A stretch of 25,673 nt of DNA. Source: Candidatus Hermodarchaeota archaeon (GTDB taxonomy: Archaea; Asgardarchaeota; Hermodarchaeia; Hermodarchaeales; Hermodarchaeaceae). Below the pieces are notes generated by a model. That model was not told the DNA's origin and did no database searches. It was given only the letters and a program-made list of their open reading frames with translations. The translations under genes and the position numbers were made by a program. Shown piece after piece: positions 7,248-19,687 of the stretch. Position 1 is the stretch's first letter; each line of letters begins with the position of its first letter. The stretch spans positions 1 through 25,673 of the forward strand of contig JAEOTB010000012.1 in the NCBI GenBank assembly GCA_016840065.1, given 5' to 3'.

Positions 7248-8360
7248 TTAGTGTATTGTTAGTCGGGCATCAGGGAGGAATAAGTGGTGACAATACCTGC
7301 ATTCAAGAAAGCCTGCAGGTGTGTGGGCTTCAAGGCCAATGTTACCGCCACATTGACTGCATTCATTTCCCAATGAAGTGTAAGGTTGGTATTTGAGAGC
7401 CTTACAGACGGAGCCAATTTGGGTGGCAAAGCGGTTCAGGATTTTCTCACCCTCCTCCTCTTCAAGGGCGTATAATCGAAGAACAACATTACCAGAGATG
7501 TGGGTGGAGGTCACTTGTAATTCAAGTAGAGCCTTATGACCGGAAAAACCCTCAACTATGTATTGAGCATAGGCTGTGAAGTTCTCACCAATGTAACCTT
7601 CATCTTCATCAAATACCGGGAGTCCTTTGAAGATGGCAGTGACGCTCTTGTAGATGGCTCCAGGATTCGTAATGTCAGGGTCGACATCGAAGGAGAATTC
7701 AGTCCAGATGATTGGAGCACCGCTCTTGATTCGACCCACAAGTTCTACCACTTCTTCGTCTGCAGAGCGACGGTATTGCTTCACCCGGTGAGAAAATTGG
7801 CGGTCTAGCTTTAGAGGTACGTCAAGATATTCCTTATCGGAAAGGCGTTTAATGAAAACGATAGTTGAAGGGGTCACCTCAACAGGTGGTGTAGGCCGTG
7901 ACTCCATAACACAAAGTTCAGTGTAGGTGCTGCTCTCCTCATCCCTTATTTCATGGACTACAACGGAGCCATAATCCCACACAGGGCCAATCAGGGTTTG
8001 AAAGAGTCTTGTTTCATCGGTTTCAGTGCTCCATCTCCCAGTGCCATATATTGAGTTAAGAGGAACGGCTAAGGTGATACTGTCTGCTGGCACAGGTTTG
8101 GCTTCATAGATAGAAACCCGATCGTTGTGTTTAAGGCGTCCCTGTATTCTGCTCCCCAATATAATGCGTTCGTGTTTGAGAGGTGAAGTAATGGTTTCGA
8201 CTTCACCAATTTCGGCTACTCTACAATAGACCTTGTCTGGGTTCTCGCTAATGATGAGTATGAATTTCCCTTGAGCCATCCAGGGCCTTGGTTTCCCCTT
8301 AATGTATAAATGGGCCTTGTATCGAAACTCCTCAAATTCCACTCTAAACTTCCCTTTCAT
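7248..8360 (-). CDS. Cdc48/p97 N-terminal-domain-like protein lacking an ATPase, with alpha/beta middle domain and C-terminal Zn ribbon
   Basis: DRVSIYEAKPVPADSITLAVP and LCVMESRPTPPVEVTPSTIVFI fit the Cdc48/VAT N-domain pattern. No Walker A. C-terminal CSQC-x15-CRYC. Confidence 0.65.
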   Translation of the reverse strand: MKGKFRVEFEEFRYKAHLYIKGKPRPWMAQGKFILIISENPDKVYCRVAEIGEVETITSPLKHERIILGSRIQGRLKHNDRVSIYEAKPVPADSITLAVPLNSIYGTGRWSTETDETRLFQTLIGPVWDYGSVVVHEIRDEESSTYTELCVMESRPTPPVEVTPSTIVFIKRLSDKEYLDVPLKLDRQFSHRVKQYRRSADEEVVELVGRIKSGAPIIWTEFSFDVDPDITNPGAIYKSVTAIFKGLPVFDEDEGYIGENFTAYAQYIVEGFSGHKALLELQVTSTHISGNVVLRLYALEEEEGEKILNRFATQIGSVCKALKYQPYTSLGNECSQCGGNIGLEAHTPAGFLECRYCHHLFLPDARLTIH

Positions 8361-8381
8361 ACCTTAATATTGAGTATTATG

Positions 8382-8389
8382 ATATATAA
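8382..8389 (-). promoter_or_regulatory. Probable TATA box for 7248..8360 (leaderless transcript)
   Basis: TTATATAT on the minus strand 22-29 nt upstream of the ATG at 8360; no obvious SD. Confidence 0.5.
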
Positions 8390-8469
8390 GAAGGTTAGTG
8401 GAACCTAGTTACAATACAACCTAACAGTTATACCTGTATCTTACCTATCTATTCCTCCGAAGGAATAGG

Positions 8470-9306
8470 ATGGTGTACGTCGCAATGGGAAGGGATGCGA
8501 AACGGTATGTACGCTTGAAGGAGCTTTCAGGATTCGTCAAGGTAAAATGGGATGTCCTCTTCAAGAAACACGTCGTGATAGCGGGTGTGGGTGGACTAGG
8601 TTCCATAGCTAGTGAAATGTTGACCCGCTGTGGAATCGGCACACTTTCCCTAATTGATATGGATGTAGTGAACGAGGAGAACCTGAACCGCCTCTTCTAT
8701 CGCACAGAACACATCGGTCAACGAAAAGTAGACGTGGCCAAGATCACCCTTGCCCAGGTTAATCCTGATGTTCACGTCGAAACCTATCACACAGATATAT
8801 GCGCCGAAGCCTTCGAACCGGTGTTAGAAAAATTACTCAAAAGATGTGACCTTCTTCTAATGGGGCTTGACAATCTCCCCAGTCGACAATATGTCAACGT
8901 GAAATGTGTTATCACTAAAACCCCTTATGTGGATGCAGGGGTCTCACGGAGCAGTTTATCAGGAAACGTGTTCTTCATAAAACCTCAGGAAACAGCCTGT
9001 GCAGAGTGTATCGGATTTGGACCCCCAATAAGGCACAAGAGGGGTCTACCCTGCAATGCTTCACTACCCACCACATTTGCCATCATCGCAGGCATCCAGG
9101 TTCAGCAAGCCCTGAAATATCTCTTAGGATTTGGAGCAACAAACAGATATCTAGCCTATGACGCCTTCTCCGATGAAATCACATTAGTACGATTTGATAA
9201 GAATCCAGATTGCCATATCTGCAGTGAAACCAGGAGAAGAAGAGCAAAGGCACCAAAAGCTAGCGCTGAAGAACTCGAAGCACTAGCCAGAGAACTAGAA
9301 GACTAG
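8470..9306 (+). CDS. uba5: E1-like activating enzyme (ThiF/MoeB superfamily), UBA5-like
   Basis: GVGGLGSIASEMLTRCGIG, NLNRLFY, Zn ligands C177/C180/C248/C251, catalytic-type C195 in CNASLPTT, and ALKYLLGFG. Human UBA5 as recalled: GVGGVGSVTAEMLTRCGIG, NMNRLFF, CAASLPTT, VLKFLLNFG. Confidence 0.88.
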   Translation: MVYVAMGRDAKRYVRLKELSGFVKVKWDVLFKKHVVIAGVGGLGSIASEMLTRCGIGTLSLIDMDVVNEENLNRLFYRTEHIGQRKVDVAKITLAQVNPDVHVETYHTDICAEAFEPVLEKLLKRCDLLLMGLDNLPSRQYVNVKCVITKTPYVDAGVSRSSLSGNVFFIKPQETACAECIGFGPPIRHKRGLPCNASLPTTFAIIAGIQVQQALKYLLGFGATNRYLAYDAFSDEITLVRFDKNPDCHICSETRRRRAKAPKASAEELEALARELED

Positions 9307-17893: not shown

Positions 17894-17962
17894 AATTTAA
17901 AAGCATCGAGGAGTCGCAAGAGCATCAAAAGTGGGAGAAGCCTGAGTAACCCTGATGAACGC

Positions 17963-19000
17963 TTATGCTCCTTCTTCTACCGCAATGAGATCGTTGCATT
18001 GACGGGTCAGGGTGTGGAGTGTTAATACGAGGAGTGTATCCTCTTCGAAGAGTTTGAGGGCCGCCTTGGGCTCGCCTGTATACTTCATGAGAGTGTTTTC
18101 AGCAGCTTCAAGAGAATAGAAGGTTTTGTTGTCGCGGCTGGGGATGGTCTGCACGGCACTGGTGCGAGCCAGGTTGGCGAGGATTTCTAGGAGCATGTCC
18201 TCTGGGATACTGTGTTTATTAGCAAAGGCTTGGACATTGAGCACACCATCAGCCCTTGTGGGTGATAAGACATAGCGGATTTCATCGGCAAAGATGACTT
18301 CAGCTAGCTCAGTGGACTGGGCAATGTCCTTAATCGGAATGACTTCGAGGATGCCGGGCCACCAGCTCTTGATGACATACTTGGTCAGTTCCTTGAAGTA
18401 GCTGGCGGGTTGGTCGCCGAAGGTGGGGCACTGGAGCTGCTGGGAGAGGATACGCTTAGTCACGTTAATTGGTGTGGACTGTTCTGAGAGGTCTCGGGAA
18501 ACCAGCAGAAGTGAACTATACCCTGTCGCCTTGCAGAACAGCTCATGGAGTAGCTCCCGGAACTCGTCCGATTGGGTGTTAGGTTCAGCGGCAAGGGCTG
18601 TGCTAATGGAGGCGCAGAGTTCTGCGTGGATGAGCATGAACACACGAGCCGCAATCTGCCCTGCCAAAATATCCTTGGCGAGTTCCTGTGTGTAGGGGGC
18701 ACGGTAGACAACTCGGATCTGGTGGCGGTCGTTGCCGATTCGGCTGATGAGTTCCTCAAGCCTCTCACCCTCCTTGCCCATCACACCTAACCCGCTAGCC
18801 TTGGTCAGGTTTTTGTGTACCTCGACCATCAAGCGGTCTATGTTCTCCGACAAGATATTGAGCTGGTCACGGACATCACGAGTCTCAATTCCTTTGAAGT
18901 ATTCGCTAAGACGCTTTTGCAGCCGGGACAGGAAGGGCTTGAGCGCTTGGCTAACGCTCCAGGCCAGGGAGATTGCTTGCGGAAGTAAATACCAAACCAT
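17963..19000 (-). CDS. Helical protein with C-terminal winged-helix (PCI-like) domain
   Basis: aa 237-307 (EIRYVL...GVLNVQAFANKHSIPEDMLLEILANLARTSAVQTIPSRDNKTFYS) fit a winged-helix pattern. GAGGTG SD; 21 nt downstream of the SPFH-like gene. Confidence 0.65.
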   Translation of the reverse strand: MVWYLLPQAISLAWSVSQALKPFLSRLQKRLSEYFKGIETRDVRDQLNILSENIDRLMVEVHKNLTKASGLGVMGKEGERLEELISRIGNDRHQIRVVYRAPYTQELAKDILAGQIAARVFMLIHAELCASISTALAAEPNTQSDEFRELLHELFCKATGYSSLLLVSRDLSEQSTPINVTKRILSQQLQCPTFGDQPASYFKELTKYVIKSWWPGILEVIPIKDIAQSTELAEVIFADEIRYVLSPTRADGVLNVQAFANKHSIPEDMLLEILANLARTSAVQTIPSRDNKTFYSLEAAENTLMKYTGEPKAALKLFEEDTLLVLTLHTLTRQCNDLIAVEEGA

Positions 19001-19021
19001 GATAACACCTCATCACTCCAG

Positions 19022-19687
19022 CTAGGAGCTGACCTTCACCTTTATCTCCTCCTTCTGGGGCAGGGGCGTACAGCCCACTAAGGTGGCGCTTTCTAGGAGA
19101 AGCCCTTTTAGTTGCAGCTCATGCCCCATGCCCTCTCGGAGCGCCTTCTGGATTGCCCTCCCCTTCGCAGAGACAATCTGCTTATAGGTCTGCTCCCCGA
19201 AGAAGGGCCGGCAAGCCTTAACCAGGGCGTCCTGAAGGCTCTTGGACAACTCGTTGATGGTGAAGCTAAACTCTGGAACACGAGCCTTCCCTCCCGACTC
19301 CTTATCAGCCTTTGACTGGGATCTCCAGTAATCCAGAAGAAGAATATCGTGCACCGTGTTCGAATCCGCAGTGCTGACCACAATGGTAAAGGCTGCACCG
19401 ATGGGTTTCTGGTCCTTTGTAAGAAACTTAAACGCCTTCTGGACCCCACAGGGAACCTCCACGGGATCCGTCCTGATGGCTTCCAGACAATCGTTCTTGC
19501 CCCACTTCCCAAAATCCACTTGGCTACCACCCGTGATGACCTCCCGGATGCTCCATTTATCCAAGCGGTGAACCGTAGCGCCGACAGGGAAAGGCGCATT
19601 CTTCAGCCGGTCTTTACGGAGACCACGCACCGTGAAGAGCTTAGCAAACTCATCCTTCCCCGGCGACAAAGGACTATCCAATGTCAT
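19022..19687 (-). CDS. SPFH/Band-7-like domain protein
   Basis: FLTKDQKPIGAAFTIVV, FTINELSKSLQDALVKACRPFF and IQKALREGMGHELQLKGLLLESATL fit the SPFH core pattern. GGAGGT SD; start may be TTG 19681. Confidence 0.65.
   Translation of the reverse strand: MTLDSPLSPGKDEFAKLFTVRGLRKDRLKNAPFPVGATVHRLDKWSIREVITGGSQVDFGKWGKNDCLEAIRTDPVEVPCGVQKAFKFLTKDQKPIGAAFTIVVSTADSNTVHDILLLDYWRSQSKADKESGGKARVPEFSFTINELSKSLQDALVKACRPFFGEQTYKQIVSAKGRAIQKALREGMGHELQLKGLLLESATLVGCTPLPQKEEIKVKVSS

Follow-up and report, generated by a model that had tools for sequence, protein, structure and literature searches.

A UFM1-type conjugation cassette adjoins a putative second ESCRT-III/Vps4-like gene set in an Asgard archaeon

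Introduction

[quoted passage not shown] For the UFM1 system, it has been reported that UFM1, UFC1 and UFSP2 occur in eukaryotes only and that UBA5 probably came from bacteria (Picchianti 2023, PMC10183829); UFM1 has also been reported in nine Asgard clades, in a study that mentions neither UBA5 nor UFC1 (Köstlbacher 2026, PMC12962969). The Meth_adaptin and Halo_adaptin ESCRT systems of Euryarchaeota, in turn, contain adaptin-appendage and Zn-ribbon proteins, SPFH proteins, a domain of VAT-N type and, upstream of a Vps4-like ATPase, a protein with weak likeness to PspA/ESCRT-III (Makarova 2024, PMC10936438). Here we describe a stretch of 25,673 nucleotides from a Candidatus Hermodarchaeota archaeon (assembly GCA_016840065.1, contig JAEOTB010000012.1), referred to below as ‘the window’, in which a UFM1-type tagging cassette lies directly beside what appears to be a divergent second set of ESCRT-III/Vps4-like genes.

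The 25.7-kb window makes up all of contig C84, from a genome of 2.59 Mb (84% complete), and its DNA is also present in marine-sediment metagenomes. Positions 7248-19687 are filled by thirteen open reading frames (ORFs; g01 to g13), each where the initial annotation, made from the letters of the DNA, had placed it; they form two blocks, followed by two trailing genes. The first block, which we call module A (7248-11404), is a UFM1-type tagging cassette consisting of g01, an activating enzyme (E1), a UFM1-UFC1 fusion and a JAMM protease. The second, module B (11501-17893), reads from its sequences as a divergent second ESCRT-III/Vps4-like gene set. The initial annotation had treated the whole as one coupled pathway; of its thirteen gene assignments we could support ten (one weakly), a further one in part, and two not at all. 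The explanation that we favour, and consider fairly probable, is that two separately conserved Asgard modules lie here side by side. In the literature searched we found no published description of an operon with a UBA5-clade E1, a UFC1-family conjugating enzyme (E2) and UFM1; what is distinctive of this window is the fusion form of the modifier and E2, together with the junction to a second ESCRT-like module.

Results

A UFM1-like domain fused to a UFC1-family E2

The gene at 9315-10136 (- strand) encodes a single protein of 273 amino acids, in which a modifier domain and an E2 share one frame; the UFM1-like domain (residues 1-88) corresponds to 9873-10136, and the linker and UFC1-family E2 domain (residues ~95-265) to 9315-9872. 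The E2 part is UFC1-like, as had been proposed: it scores 39.4 bits with the Pfam UFC1 model (PF08694; cut-off 25 bits) and just 15.3 bits with UQ_con; a phmmer search of PDB sequences returned UFC1 as the sole significant matches (E 2e-5 to 8e-4); and UFC1 supplies the top Foldseek matches to this part of the AlphaFold2 (AF2) model. Cys223 aligns with Cys116 of UFC1 and a T-S-K run with its TAK motif, which puts Lys205 at the position of the TAK Lys; across 20 sequences of the E2 family both C223 and K205 are invariant, the former within an I-C-H-x-H motif that is itself invariant. The E2 domain passes the gathering score of Pfam UFC1, has its Cys at the UFC1 position, keeps the TAK Lys and contains no HPN motif. 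Run against 1.84 billion representative proteins, the Asgard E2 profile drew 49 matches, one of them a true UFC1 at 3.7e-6 (203 bits on PF08694), and none of ten lower-ranked matches that were checked against Pfam belonged to the canonical UQ_con E2 family; a word-based search with the fusion protein matched itself alone.

In the AF2 model of the fusion (predicted local distance difference test score, pLDDT, 84) residues 1-88 adopt a beta-grasp fold, and residues 86-93 are predicted to form a disordered linker. Foldseek aligns the modelled residues 1-88 to UFM1 with template-modelling (TM) scores of 0.80-0.86, as against 0.70-0.72 to Caldiarchaeum ubiquitin, and the Val-Gly with which the domain ends is invariant in 8 fused and ~20 free homologues. 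It is on this modelled fold, the Val-Gly end and the gene context that the identity of the modifier as UFM1-like rests. A UFM1-like modifier had been claimed for the window, and one is indeed present, but it has no separate gene and forms residues 1-88 of the protein that the E2 gene encodes.

This arrangement invites a different reading, in which the UFM1-like domain is never released and stays on the E2 as an in-cis docking site, binding for example the E1 or the Cdc48-N-like protein, such that no free modifier exists here. Built-in ubiquitin-like (Ubl) domains are common in eukaryotic enzymes, and the window showed no modifier gene apart from the fusion. Set against this, all 8 fusions retain Val-Gly at the very point where the free homologues stop; the model predicts a disordered linker; a JAMM protease is a constant companion of the cassette; and archaeal Rpn11-type JAMM enzymes process Ub precursors (PMC6043591). 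We therefore think it highly improbable, and take the domain to be a candidate modifier in what follows.

A UBA5-clade E1, a JAMM protease and g01

The E1 gene (8470-9306, + strand; 278 amino acids) encodes a ThiF-domain protein whose best solved relatives are UBA5 (2e-43, as against 1e-25 for MoeB), with a GxGGxG nucleotide loop and two CxxC pairs. Its putative catalytic Cys aligns with that of UBA5 and sits inside the adenylation domain, in the context CNASLPTT, and its C-terminus is predicted to form an acidic amphipathic helix; on sequence comparison, the tails of the cassette E1s are patterned like those of two eukaryotic UBA5 proteins. In a search of 5.8 billion proteins, eukaryotic UBA5 came next after the Asgard orthologues and ahead of all MoeB/ThiF, and in a 67-row tree the cassette E1s, 2 eukaryotic UBA5 and 3 prokaryotic CNASLPTT proteins form one clade (Shimodaira-Hasegawa-like approximate likelihood ratio test, SH-aLRT, 99). 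Both the assignment of this gene as a UBA5-like E1 and the wider proposal, that E1, E2 and modifier carry the signatures of the UFM1 pathway and not those of ubiquitin, are thereby borne out (by Pfam, PDB matches, Foldseek, the E1 tree and the E2 profile).

The adjoining gene (10313-11404, + strand; 363 amino acids) encodes the JAMM/MPN+ metalloprotease that had been annotated there: both Prok-JAB (34.8 bits) and JAB (25.2 bits) exceed their Pfam cut-offs, and the H-x-H...S-x-x-D motif is intact, as HSHP...SSTDD. The protein carries a conserved C-terminal extension of ~230 amino acids and has homologues in 26 cassette loci.

At the other end of the cassette, g01 (7248-8360, - strand; 370 amino acids) had been called a Cdc48-N adaptor, and a Cdc48-N-like domain is supported by its fold. 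The AF2 model (pLDDT 78) has a Cdc48/VAT/NSF-type N domain at residues 1-180, then a coiled coil, a helix-grip or adaptin-appendage-platform-like domain at residues ~203-326, and a C-terminal CxxC...CxxC zinc ribbon. Foldseek matches the model to p97/VAT-N at E 5e-5; VIA-align gives the N domain Z scores of 8.4-9.5 over 141-152 residues to Cdc48A-N, PEX1-N, NSF-N and VAT-N, and gives g01 Z scores of ~10 to the AP2 and gamma-COP appendages and to Bet v1-like folds. Homologues of g01 adjoin the E1 gene in 20 loci, and it is the conserved fifth gene of the UFM1 cassette. By fold and gene content, g01 and the SPFH neighbours of the cassette echo parts of the Meth_adaptin and Halo_adaptin systems, with the differences that here these parts accompany a UFM1-type cassette and that the VAT-N domain sits on a protein without an ATPase.

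Compared with the eukaryotic UFM1 core, the likenesses lie in an E1 that falls in the UBA5 clade, with its Cys within the adenylation domain and a predicted acidic C-terminal helix patterned like the UFC1-binding tail; in an E2 above the Pfam UFC1 threshold, with its Cys aligned to Cys116 and the TAK Lys kept; and in a modifier with the modelled UFM1 fold and a Val-Gly end. Unlike that core, everything here is encoded in one cassette, with modifier and E2 in a single fusion; a JAMM metalloenzyme takes the place of the UFSP cysteine protease; searches of this genome, 84% complete, turned up neither UFL1 nor DDRGK1 nor CDK5RAP3; the E1 is without the long eukaryotic C-terminal region; and an insertion of ~10 residues separates the TAK-position Lys from the catalytic Cys.

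Conservation of the cassette across Asgard lineages

When genomes representing each species were searched with the E2 alignment, 33 loci emerged, in Lokiarchaeum ossiferum, two complete Heimdallarchaeum genomes, Sigynarchaeum, and metagenome-assembled genomes (MAGs) labelled Hermodarchaeota and Promethearchaeota; the E2 profile matches 36 of 400 genomes of the phylum. In ~26 of these loci, of Loki-, Heimdall-, Hermod- and Sigyn-type, the genes for a g01-like protein, E1, JAMM protease, UFM1 and E2 are colinear. The modifier and E2 are fused in 8 genomes; in the remainder, a UFM1 gene of 87-95 amino acids lies directly upstream of an E2 gene of 180 amino acids. Most of these free UFM1 genes (loci L042-L060) end right after the Val-Gly codons, and therefore their products would need no maturation; those of L034, L038, L041 and L057 have 1-3 extra residues, like pro-UFM1.

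An SPFH gene adjoins the cassette in 21 loci. Its partner in the Loki-type loci is a winged-helix paralogue of g01 (460 amino acids), and in the Heimdall-type loci an EAP30/Vps22-like protein (345 amino acids). The putative counterpart of this SPFH protein in the window is g13 (19022-19687, - strand; 221 amino acids), probably a divergent member of the SPFH-like group to judge by profile matches: it hits the hidden Markov model of the cassette-linked SPFH cluster at E 3.9e-4 and aligns to that cluster in hhalign (33%, E 4.5e-4, 123 colinear columns; reversed control 0.1%), with no match to Pfam Band_7. The SPFH assignment made earlier is upheld, if weakly, by the hhalign result.

Some further observations concern the cassette and its E2 family. 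A 749-amino acid ORF in locus L012 (G152:C100) contains a UFC1-like domain in which Ser replaces the catalytic Cys (M-I-S-H-D-H), fused to an extended N-terminal TPR region and, at the C-terminus, to a Ubl-like domain whose end is not VG; by sequence it looks like an inactive, E2-variant form of the E2 family. Partial UFC1-like matches were also obtained on two contigs (L058, L063; JANBVM01) of a MAG labelled Patescibacteria, and we would guess these to be misbinned Asgard DNA. In the window, the cassette is flanked by a leucine-rich repeat (LRR) protein (6121-7137, + strand); LRR proteins (cluster c7) are scattered in other cassette loci (L045, L047, L051, L054), and in L047 and L051 they lie between cassette genes.

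A putative second ESCRT-III/Vps4-like gene set

Module B opens with g05 (11501-12100, + strand; 199 amino acids), which profile comparison places as a divergent protein of the ESCRT-III superfamily. The alignment of its family (A2) matches a profile of 34 Asgard Snf7 proteins in hhalign with a probability of 92.9% (E 3.7e-7) over 140 colinear columns, with one-sided reversal reaching <=2% and 20 column shuffles <=0.7%. Its C-terminus carries a conserved acidic DPEF...LP.E.K sequence, and among its Atlas look-alikes is one cluster with 13% Snf7 members, which we treat as a lead only. The gene always lies upstream of that for the AAA protein, an order kept in 11 loci. One or more ESCRT-III-like subunits had been annotated in this block, of which one, g05, is supported; when the g07, g08, g09, m5 and m6 families were compared by hhalign with both Snf7 and the g05 family, no similarity emerged, and therefore a second subunit is not supported.

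The next gene, g06 (12103-13281, + strand; 392 amino acids), had been described as an MIT-AAA ATPase and appears to be a Vps4-like paralogue. Its single AAA cassette is followed by a Vps4_C-like helix, and Pfam AAA and Vps4_C both exceed their cut-offs; Pfam MIT is matched by 2 of 10 members of the family (best E 5.5e-5) and not by g06 itself, the N-terminus of the family being MIT-like. A 20-row tree recovers the g06 family as a clade (support 99) whose sister is canonical Asgard Vps4 (86), Cdc48-D2 falling outside (98). On these three grounds the earlier description stands. A plain Cdc48 fragment was also considered as an identity for g06, and rejected; the protein is a member of a conserved single-cassette family with an MIT-like N-terminus.

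Downstream lie g07 (13285-13947, + strand; 220 amino acids), a helical protein that Pfam places in no family and that does not resemble the Snf7 profile, whose homologues occur in 7 other module B loci; and g08 (13944-14768, + strand; 274 amino acids), the start of which overlaps the g07 stop by 4 bases. The latter likewise belongs to no Pfam family and, in profile comparisons, resembles neither Snf7 nor the module families, and a gene of similar size stands at its position in locus L116. The product of g09 (14774-15835, + strand; 353 amino acids) is TPR/SNAP-like with a steadiness-box-like hairpin: Pfam gives sub-threshold matches to TPR_12, SNAP and Vps23_core (PF09454; 16.1 bits, cut-off 26.8), and residues 293-350, the last 58, match the steadiness box of the same genome's Vps23 at 5e-5, in keeping with the SNAP-like/steadiness-box protein annotated there. 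Homologues of its N-terminal part follow the AAA gene in 5 loci.

The block closes with g10 (15838-16197, + strand; 119 amino acids), directly upstream of g11 (16220-17893, + strand; 557 amino acids). The annotation of g11 as a subtilase is confirmed by its match to Pfam Peptidase_S8 at 8.6e-49; the Asp, His and Ser motifs are present, no obvious signal peptide was seen, and orthologues occur in 3 other module B loci. That of g10 as a subtilase inhibitor found no backing, as the protein matches no Pfam family; a single weak match (E 4e-4) occurs in L116, where it too precedes the S8 gene.

The g05 and g06 pair recurs in 11 loci from at least 6 Asgard families, often with the ESCRT-III-like gene duplicated, and the g05/g06 family is found in 14 of the 400 genomes. 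Genes like g07 and g09 accompany most module B loci, and a subtilase 4 of the 11. Public records label the proteins of module B hypothetical, and we found no description of the module in the ESCRT survey of Makarova 2024 (PMC10936438). Some of the MAGs that carry it (L117-L120, G292-G296; proteins P0174-P0177) bear NCBI labels such as Korarchaeota or Crenarchaeota, at odds with a genome search, which puts them in the phylum of the window. In the Njord-type module B loci, a Zn-ribbon and FG-GAP protein of ~570 amino acids stands in a conserved gene row.

The same genome holds, on contig C69, a textbook locus with E1, canonical E2, ubiquitin, RING, Vps23, Vps28, Vps22, Vps25, Vps4 and two Snf7 genes; the systems of the window are therefore second, divergent copies and not replacements. 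At the edge of that locus (L124 3792-4550, G000:C69) lies a gene for a Zn-ribbon and Yip1-domain membrane protein. In common with canonical Asgard ESCRT-III (Vps2/24/46, Vps20/32/60) and Vps4, module B has a helical protein of ~200 amino acids directly upstream of an ATPase with an MIT-like and a single AAA domain, profile similarity of g05 to Snf7, an AAA family that stands as sister to Vps4 in the small tree, and a steadiness-box-like protein in the same operon. It differs in having no Pfam Snf7 match, Vps25 or Vps22, in adding coiled-coil proteins and a subtilase, in an AAA sequence (g06) that is no further from Cdc48-D2 than from Vps4, and in the restriction of the g05/g06 family to only 14 of the 400 genomes.

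Taken together, the contents of the two modules might also suggest an accessory, defence-type island, with the E1, E2, Ubl and JAB components like those of bacterial Bil/Bub systems and the AAA protein and subtilase like IetAS. Both modules are patchily distributed (36/400 and 14/400 genomes), LRR proteins and large repeat proteins occur close to the cassette in the window and at other loci, BubCD is among the distant matches of the E1, and PADLOC returned its E1-E2 models (73 bits), JAB (24), IetA (93), IetS (37) and subtilase (94). These PADLOC scores, however, reflect generic domain similarity, and the AAA protein scores far higher against Cdc48 and Vps4; the E2 is of the UFC1 family and matches no defence model, nor did the PADLOC models match g01, g05, g09, g12 or g13; the E1 groups with UBA5; and the subtilase is present in 4 of 11 module B loci, as compared with all of them for the ESCRT-III-like gene. 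The AAA and subtilase pair was examined specifically as an IetAS system and rejected, the similarity being generic. Beyond the shared patchiness and a Ubl/E1/E2/JAB set or AAA and subtilase pair, the likeness to Bil/Bub and IetAS is thus at the level of generic domains, and we consider a defence island improbable.

The two modules adjoin in one genus

Having favoured the view that modules A and B are separately conserved, we turn to their junction. The JAMM gene and g05-g11 are co-directional, with a gap of 96 bp from JAMM to g05, after which the genes nearly touch; from 11501 to 17893 they lie on a single strand with intergenic gaps of -4 to 22 bp, in agreement with the tight packing already noted in the initial annotation. 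The sister species G110 shows the same order: two short contigs, C451 and C468, meet within its JAMM gene, and the sequence runs on through g05 to the AAA gene. An assembly chimera at the junction was considered and rejected: a single contig of 4987 bases from an independent assembly covers 7826-12812, and G110 keeps the same junction. Divergence between G110 (L031, L098) and the window is unequal, the fusion E2 being ~48% identical and g05 78%, with the AAA and JAMM proteins scoring high.

Outside these two species, which belong to one genus, the modules were not found to adjoin. No module B gene lies within 10 kb of any other cassette locus, ~26 of which are without the genes of 11501-19687, and the E2 profile found no UFC1-like E2 in nine other module B genomes (positive control 1.9e-81). 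A synteny check across Asgard genomes thus shows the order of the JAMM, ESCRT-III-like and AAA genes to be shared with G110, and no co-occurrence beyond the genus, so that the proposed coupling falls short on most of the test that the initial annotation had set for it. It follows that a general, UFM1-dependent ESCRT pathway, as originally proposed, is not supported; and since each module is conserved alone and the two are joined only in one genus, they are best seen as independent units brought together there.

A genus-specific functional link between modules A and B is possible. One could envisage, at its strongest, a UFM1-type cascade wired here to the ESCRT-III/Vps4-like module in parallel to the ubiquitin-ESCRT pathway, in which membranes would be the site where tagged cargo or subunits are recognised, sorted or extracted, with cleavage by the subtilase as a possible further step. 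Such coupling is suggested by the co-directional run from the JAMM gene into module B; by a junction that is kept in the sister species despite an E2 only 48% identical; by the position of the SPFH-like g13, of a kind that usually neighbours the cassette, on the far side of module B, which therefore falls inside the cassette neighbourhood; by the Vps22-like, SPFH and appendage-like proteins that accompany the cassette in other Asgard lineages; and by the canonical locus of the same genome, which pairs ubiquitin with ESCRT genes. Against it stand the confinement of co-occurrence to one genus, with nine other module B genomes devoid of a UFC1-like E2, the ~26 cassette loci devoid of module B, and the lack of support for the proposed UFL1-like scaffold (see below). 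On balance, we regard this coupled pathway as rather doubtful, and retain two adjacent, separately conserved modules as our preferred account. What is observed in other lineages is a looser, recurring association of the UFM1 cassette with SPFH, Vps22-like and appendage-like proteins.

Similarly to the archaeal ubiquitin operons, then, the window presents a Ubl/E1/E2/JAMM operon with ESCRT-type genes adjoining. Unlike them, it draws on the UBA5, UFC1 and UFM1 lineages and has no RING E3, and the ESCRT-like genes next to it form a second, divergent set that differs from the Vps23/Vps28/Vps22/Vps25/Vps4/Snf7 complement.

Trailing and flanking genes

Between module B and g13 lies g12 (17963-19000, - strand; 345 amino acids), which had been put forward as a possible UFL1/DDRGK1-like winged-helix scaffold. 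It has no Pfam family, a best Atlas score of 0.75, no homologue in the 400 genomes, and no similarity to the profiles of the Vps22-like, SPFH, g01-like and LigB clusters; as an orphan without detectable family or homologue, it therefore lends that reading no support.

Directly after g13, the gene at 19775-25456 (- strand) encodes a protein of 1893 amino acids with FG-GAP and PQQ-type beta-propeller repeats. Upstream of the cassette, 3813-4568 and 4825-5583 (both - strand) are tandem paralogues, at 221 bits to each other, from a family of 250-amino acid proteins with no Pfam match, of which at least 7 further copies occur on other contigs of the same genome.

Discussion

Taken as a whole, the analysis shows the family assignments, the conservation of each module and their adjacency in one genus. 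Several results nevertheless weigh against the reading of modules A and B that we prefer. The UFM1 domain is without recognition at the sequence level, the best relative reaching 13.7 bits with Pfam Ufm1 (PF03671; cut-off 27) and the profile of the domain family matching UFM1 in the PDB at a non-significant E = 1. Models for UFL1 (PF09743), DDRGK1 (PF09756) and the UFSP Peptidase_C78 (PF07910) found nothing in the window's own genome, which is 84% complete, the C78 search having been run without a positive control. The E1 tree includes just 2 eukaryotic UBA5, and the branching order inside its clade is not resolved. As for module B, Pfam Snf7 (PF03357) recognises, with E values of up to 1 allowed, neither g05 nor one of its 14 relatives, the scan giving coiled-coil noise only, and by raw score the AAA domain of g06 is nearer to VAT/Cdc48-D2 than to Vps4.

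With these points in mind, we propose a speculative model for how the cassette might operate, in which all of the catalytic steps are ones that we infer. The modifier would be translated as a UFM1-UFC1 polyprotein, and the JAMM enzyme would cut after Gly88, in the predicted disordered linker, to yield a modifier ending in Val-Gly and a free E2; a precedent for such a step is provided by the Rpn11 of Caldiarchaeum, which processes a Ub precursor (PMC6043591). The UBA5-clade E1 would then adenylate the modifier, accept it at the Cys of CNASLPTT, and engage the E2 via its acidic C-terminal helix, such that the modifier could be transferred to Cys223 of the UFC1-like E2 and thence to target lysines. 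We suggest that the JAMM enzyme may also serve to remove the mark, and that the likeliest receptor, adaptor or substrate would be g01, with its N domain of Ubl-binding type, or the SPFH-like g13, with the Vps22-like neighbours as additional candidates.

In module B, we would expect g05 to polymerise and the MIT-AAA protein g06 to remodel or disassemble the polymer, with g09 and the subtilase acting as accessories. The JAMM gene may share a transcript with module B in this genus; saying this, any cross-talk between modules A and B is, like the chemistry above, something that we infer. The combined proposal, that the UFM1 cascade is wired to a second ESCRT-III/Vps4-like machine in this genus, and was already linked to membranes before eukaryotes through its SPFH, Vps22-like and appendage-like partners, seems to us unlikely; if true, such a pre-eukaryotic link would foreshadow UFMylation at the endoplasmic reticulum membrane.

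The implications of the individual modules are more immediate. A compact operon of UBA5-clade E1, UFC1-family E2 and UFM1 is present in Lokiarchaeum ossiferum, and for this reason the sequences suggest that the core of UFMylation may predate eukaryotes; as that species is in culture, the system is also testable at the bench. A modifier-E2 polyprotein paired with a JAMM protease would represent a simple and new way to build such a cascade, and module B adds what appears to be an unannotated family to the archaeal ESCRT repertoire. Finally, the side-by-side arrangement seen in this genus provides the best available place to ask whether Ubl tagging and ESCRT-type remodelling have been linked more than once.

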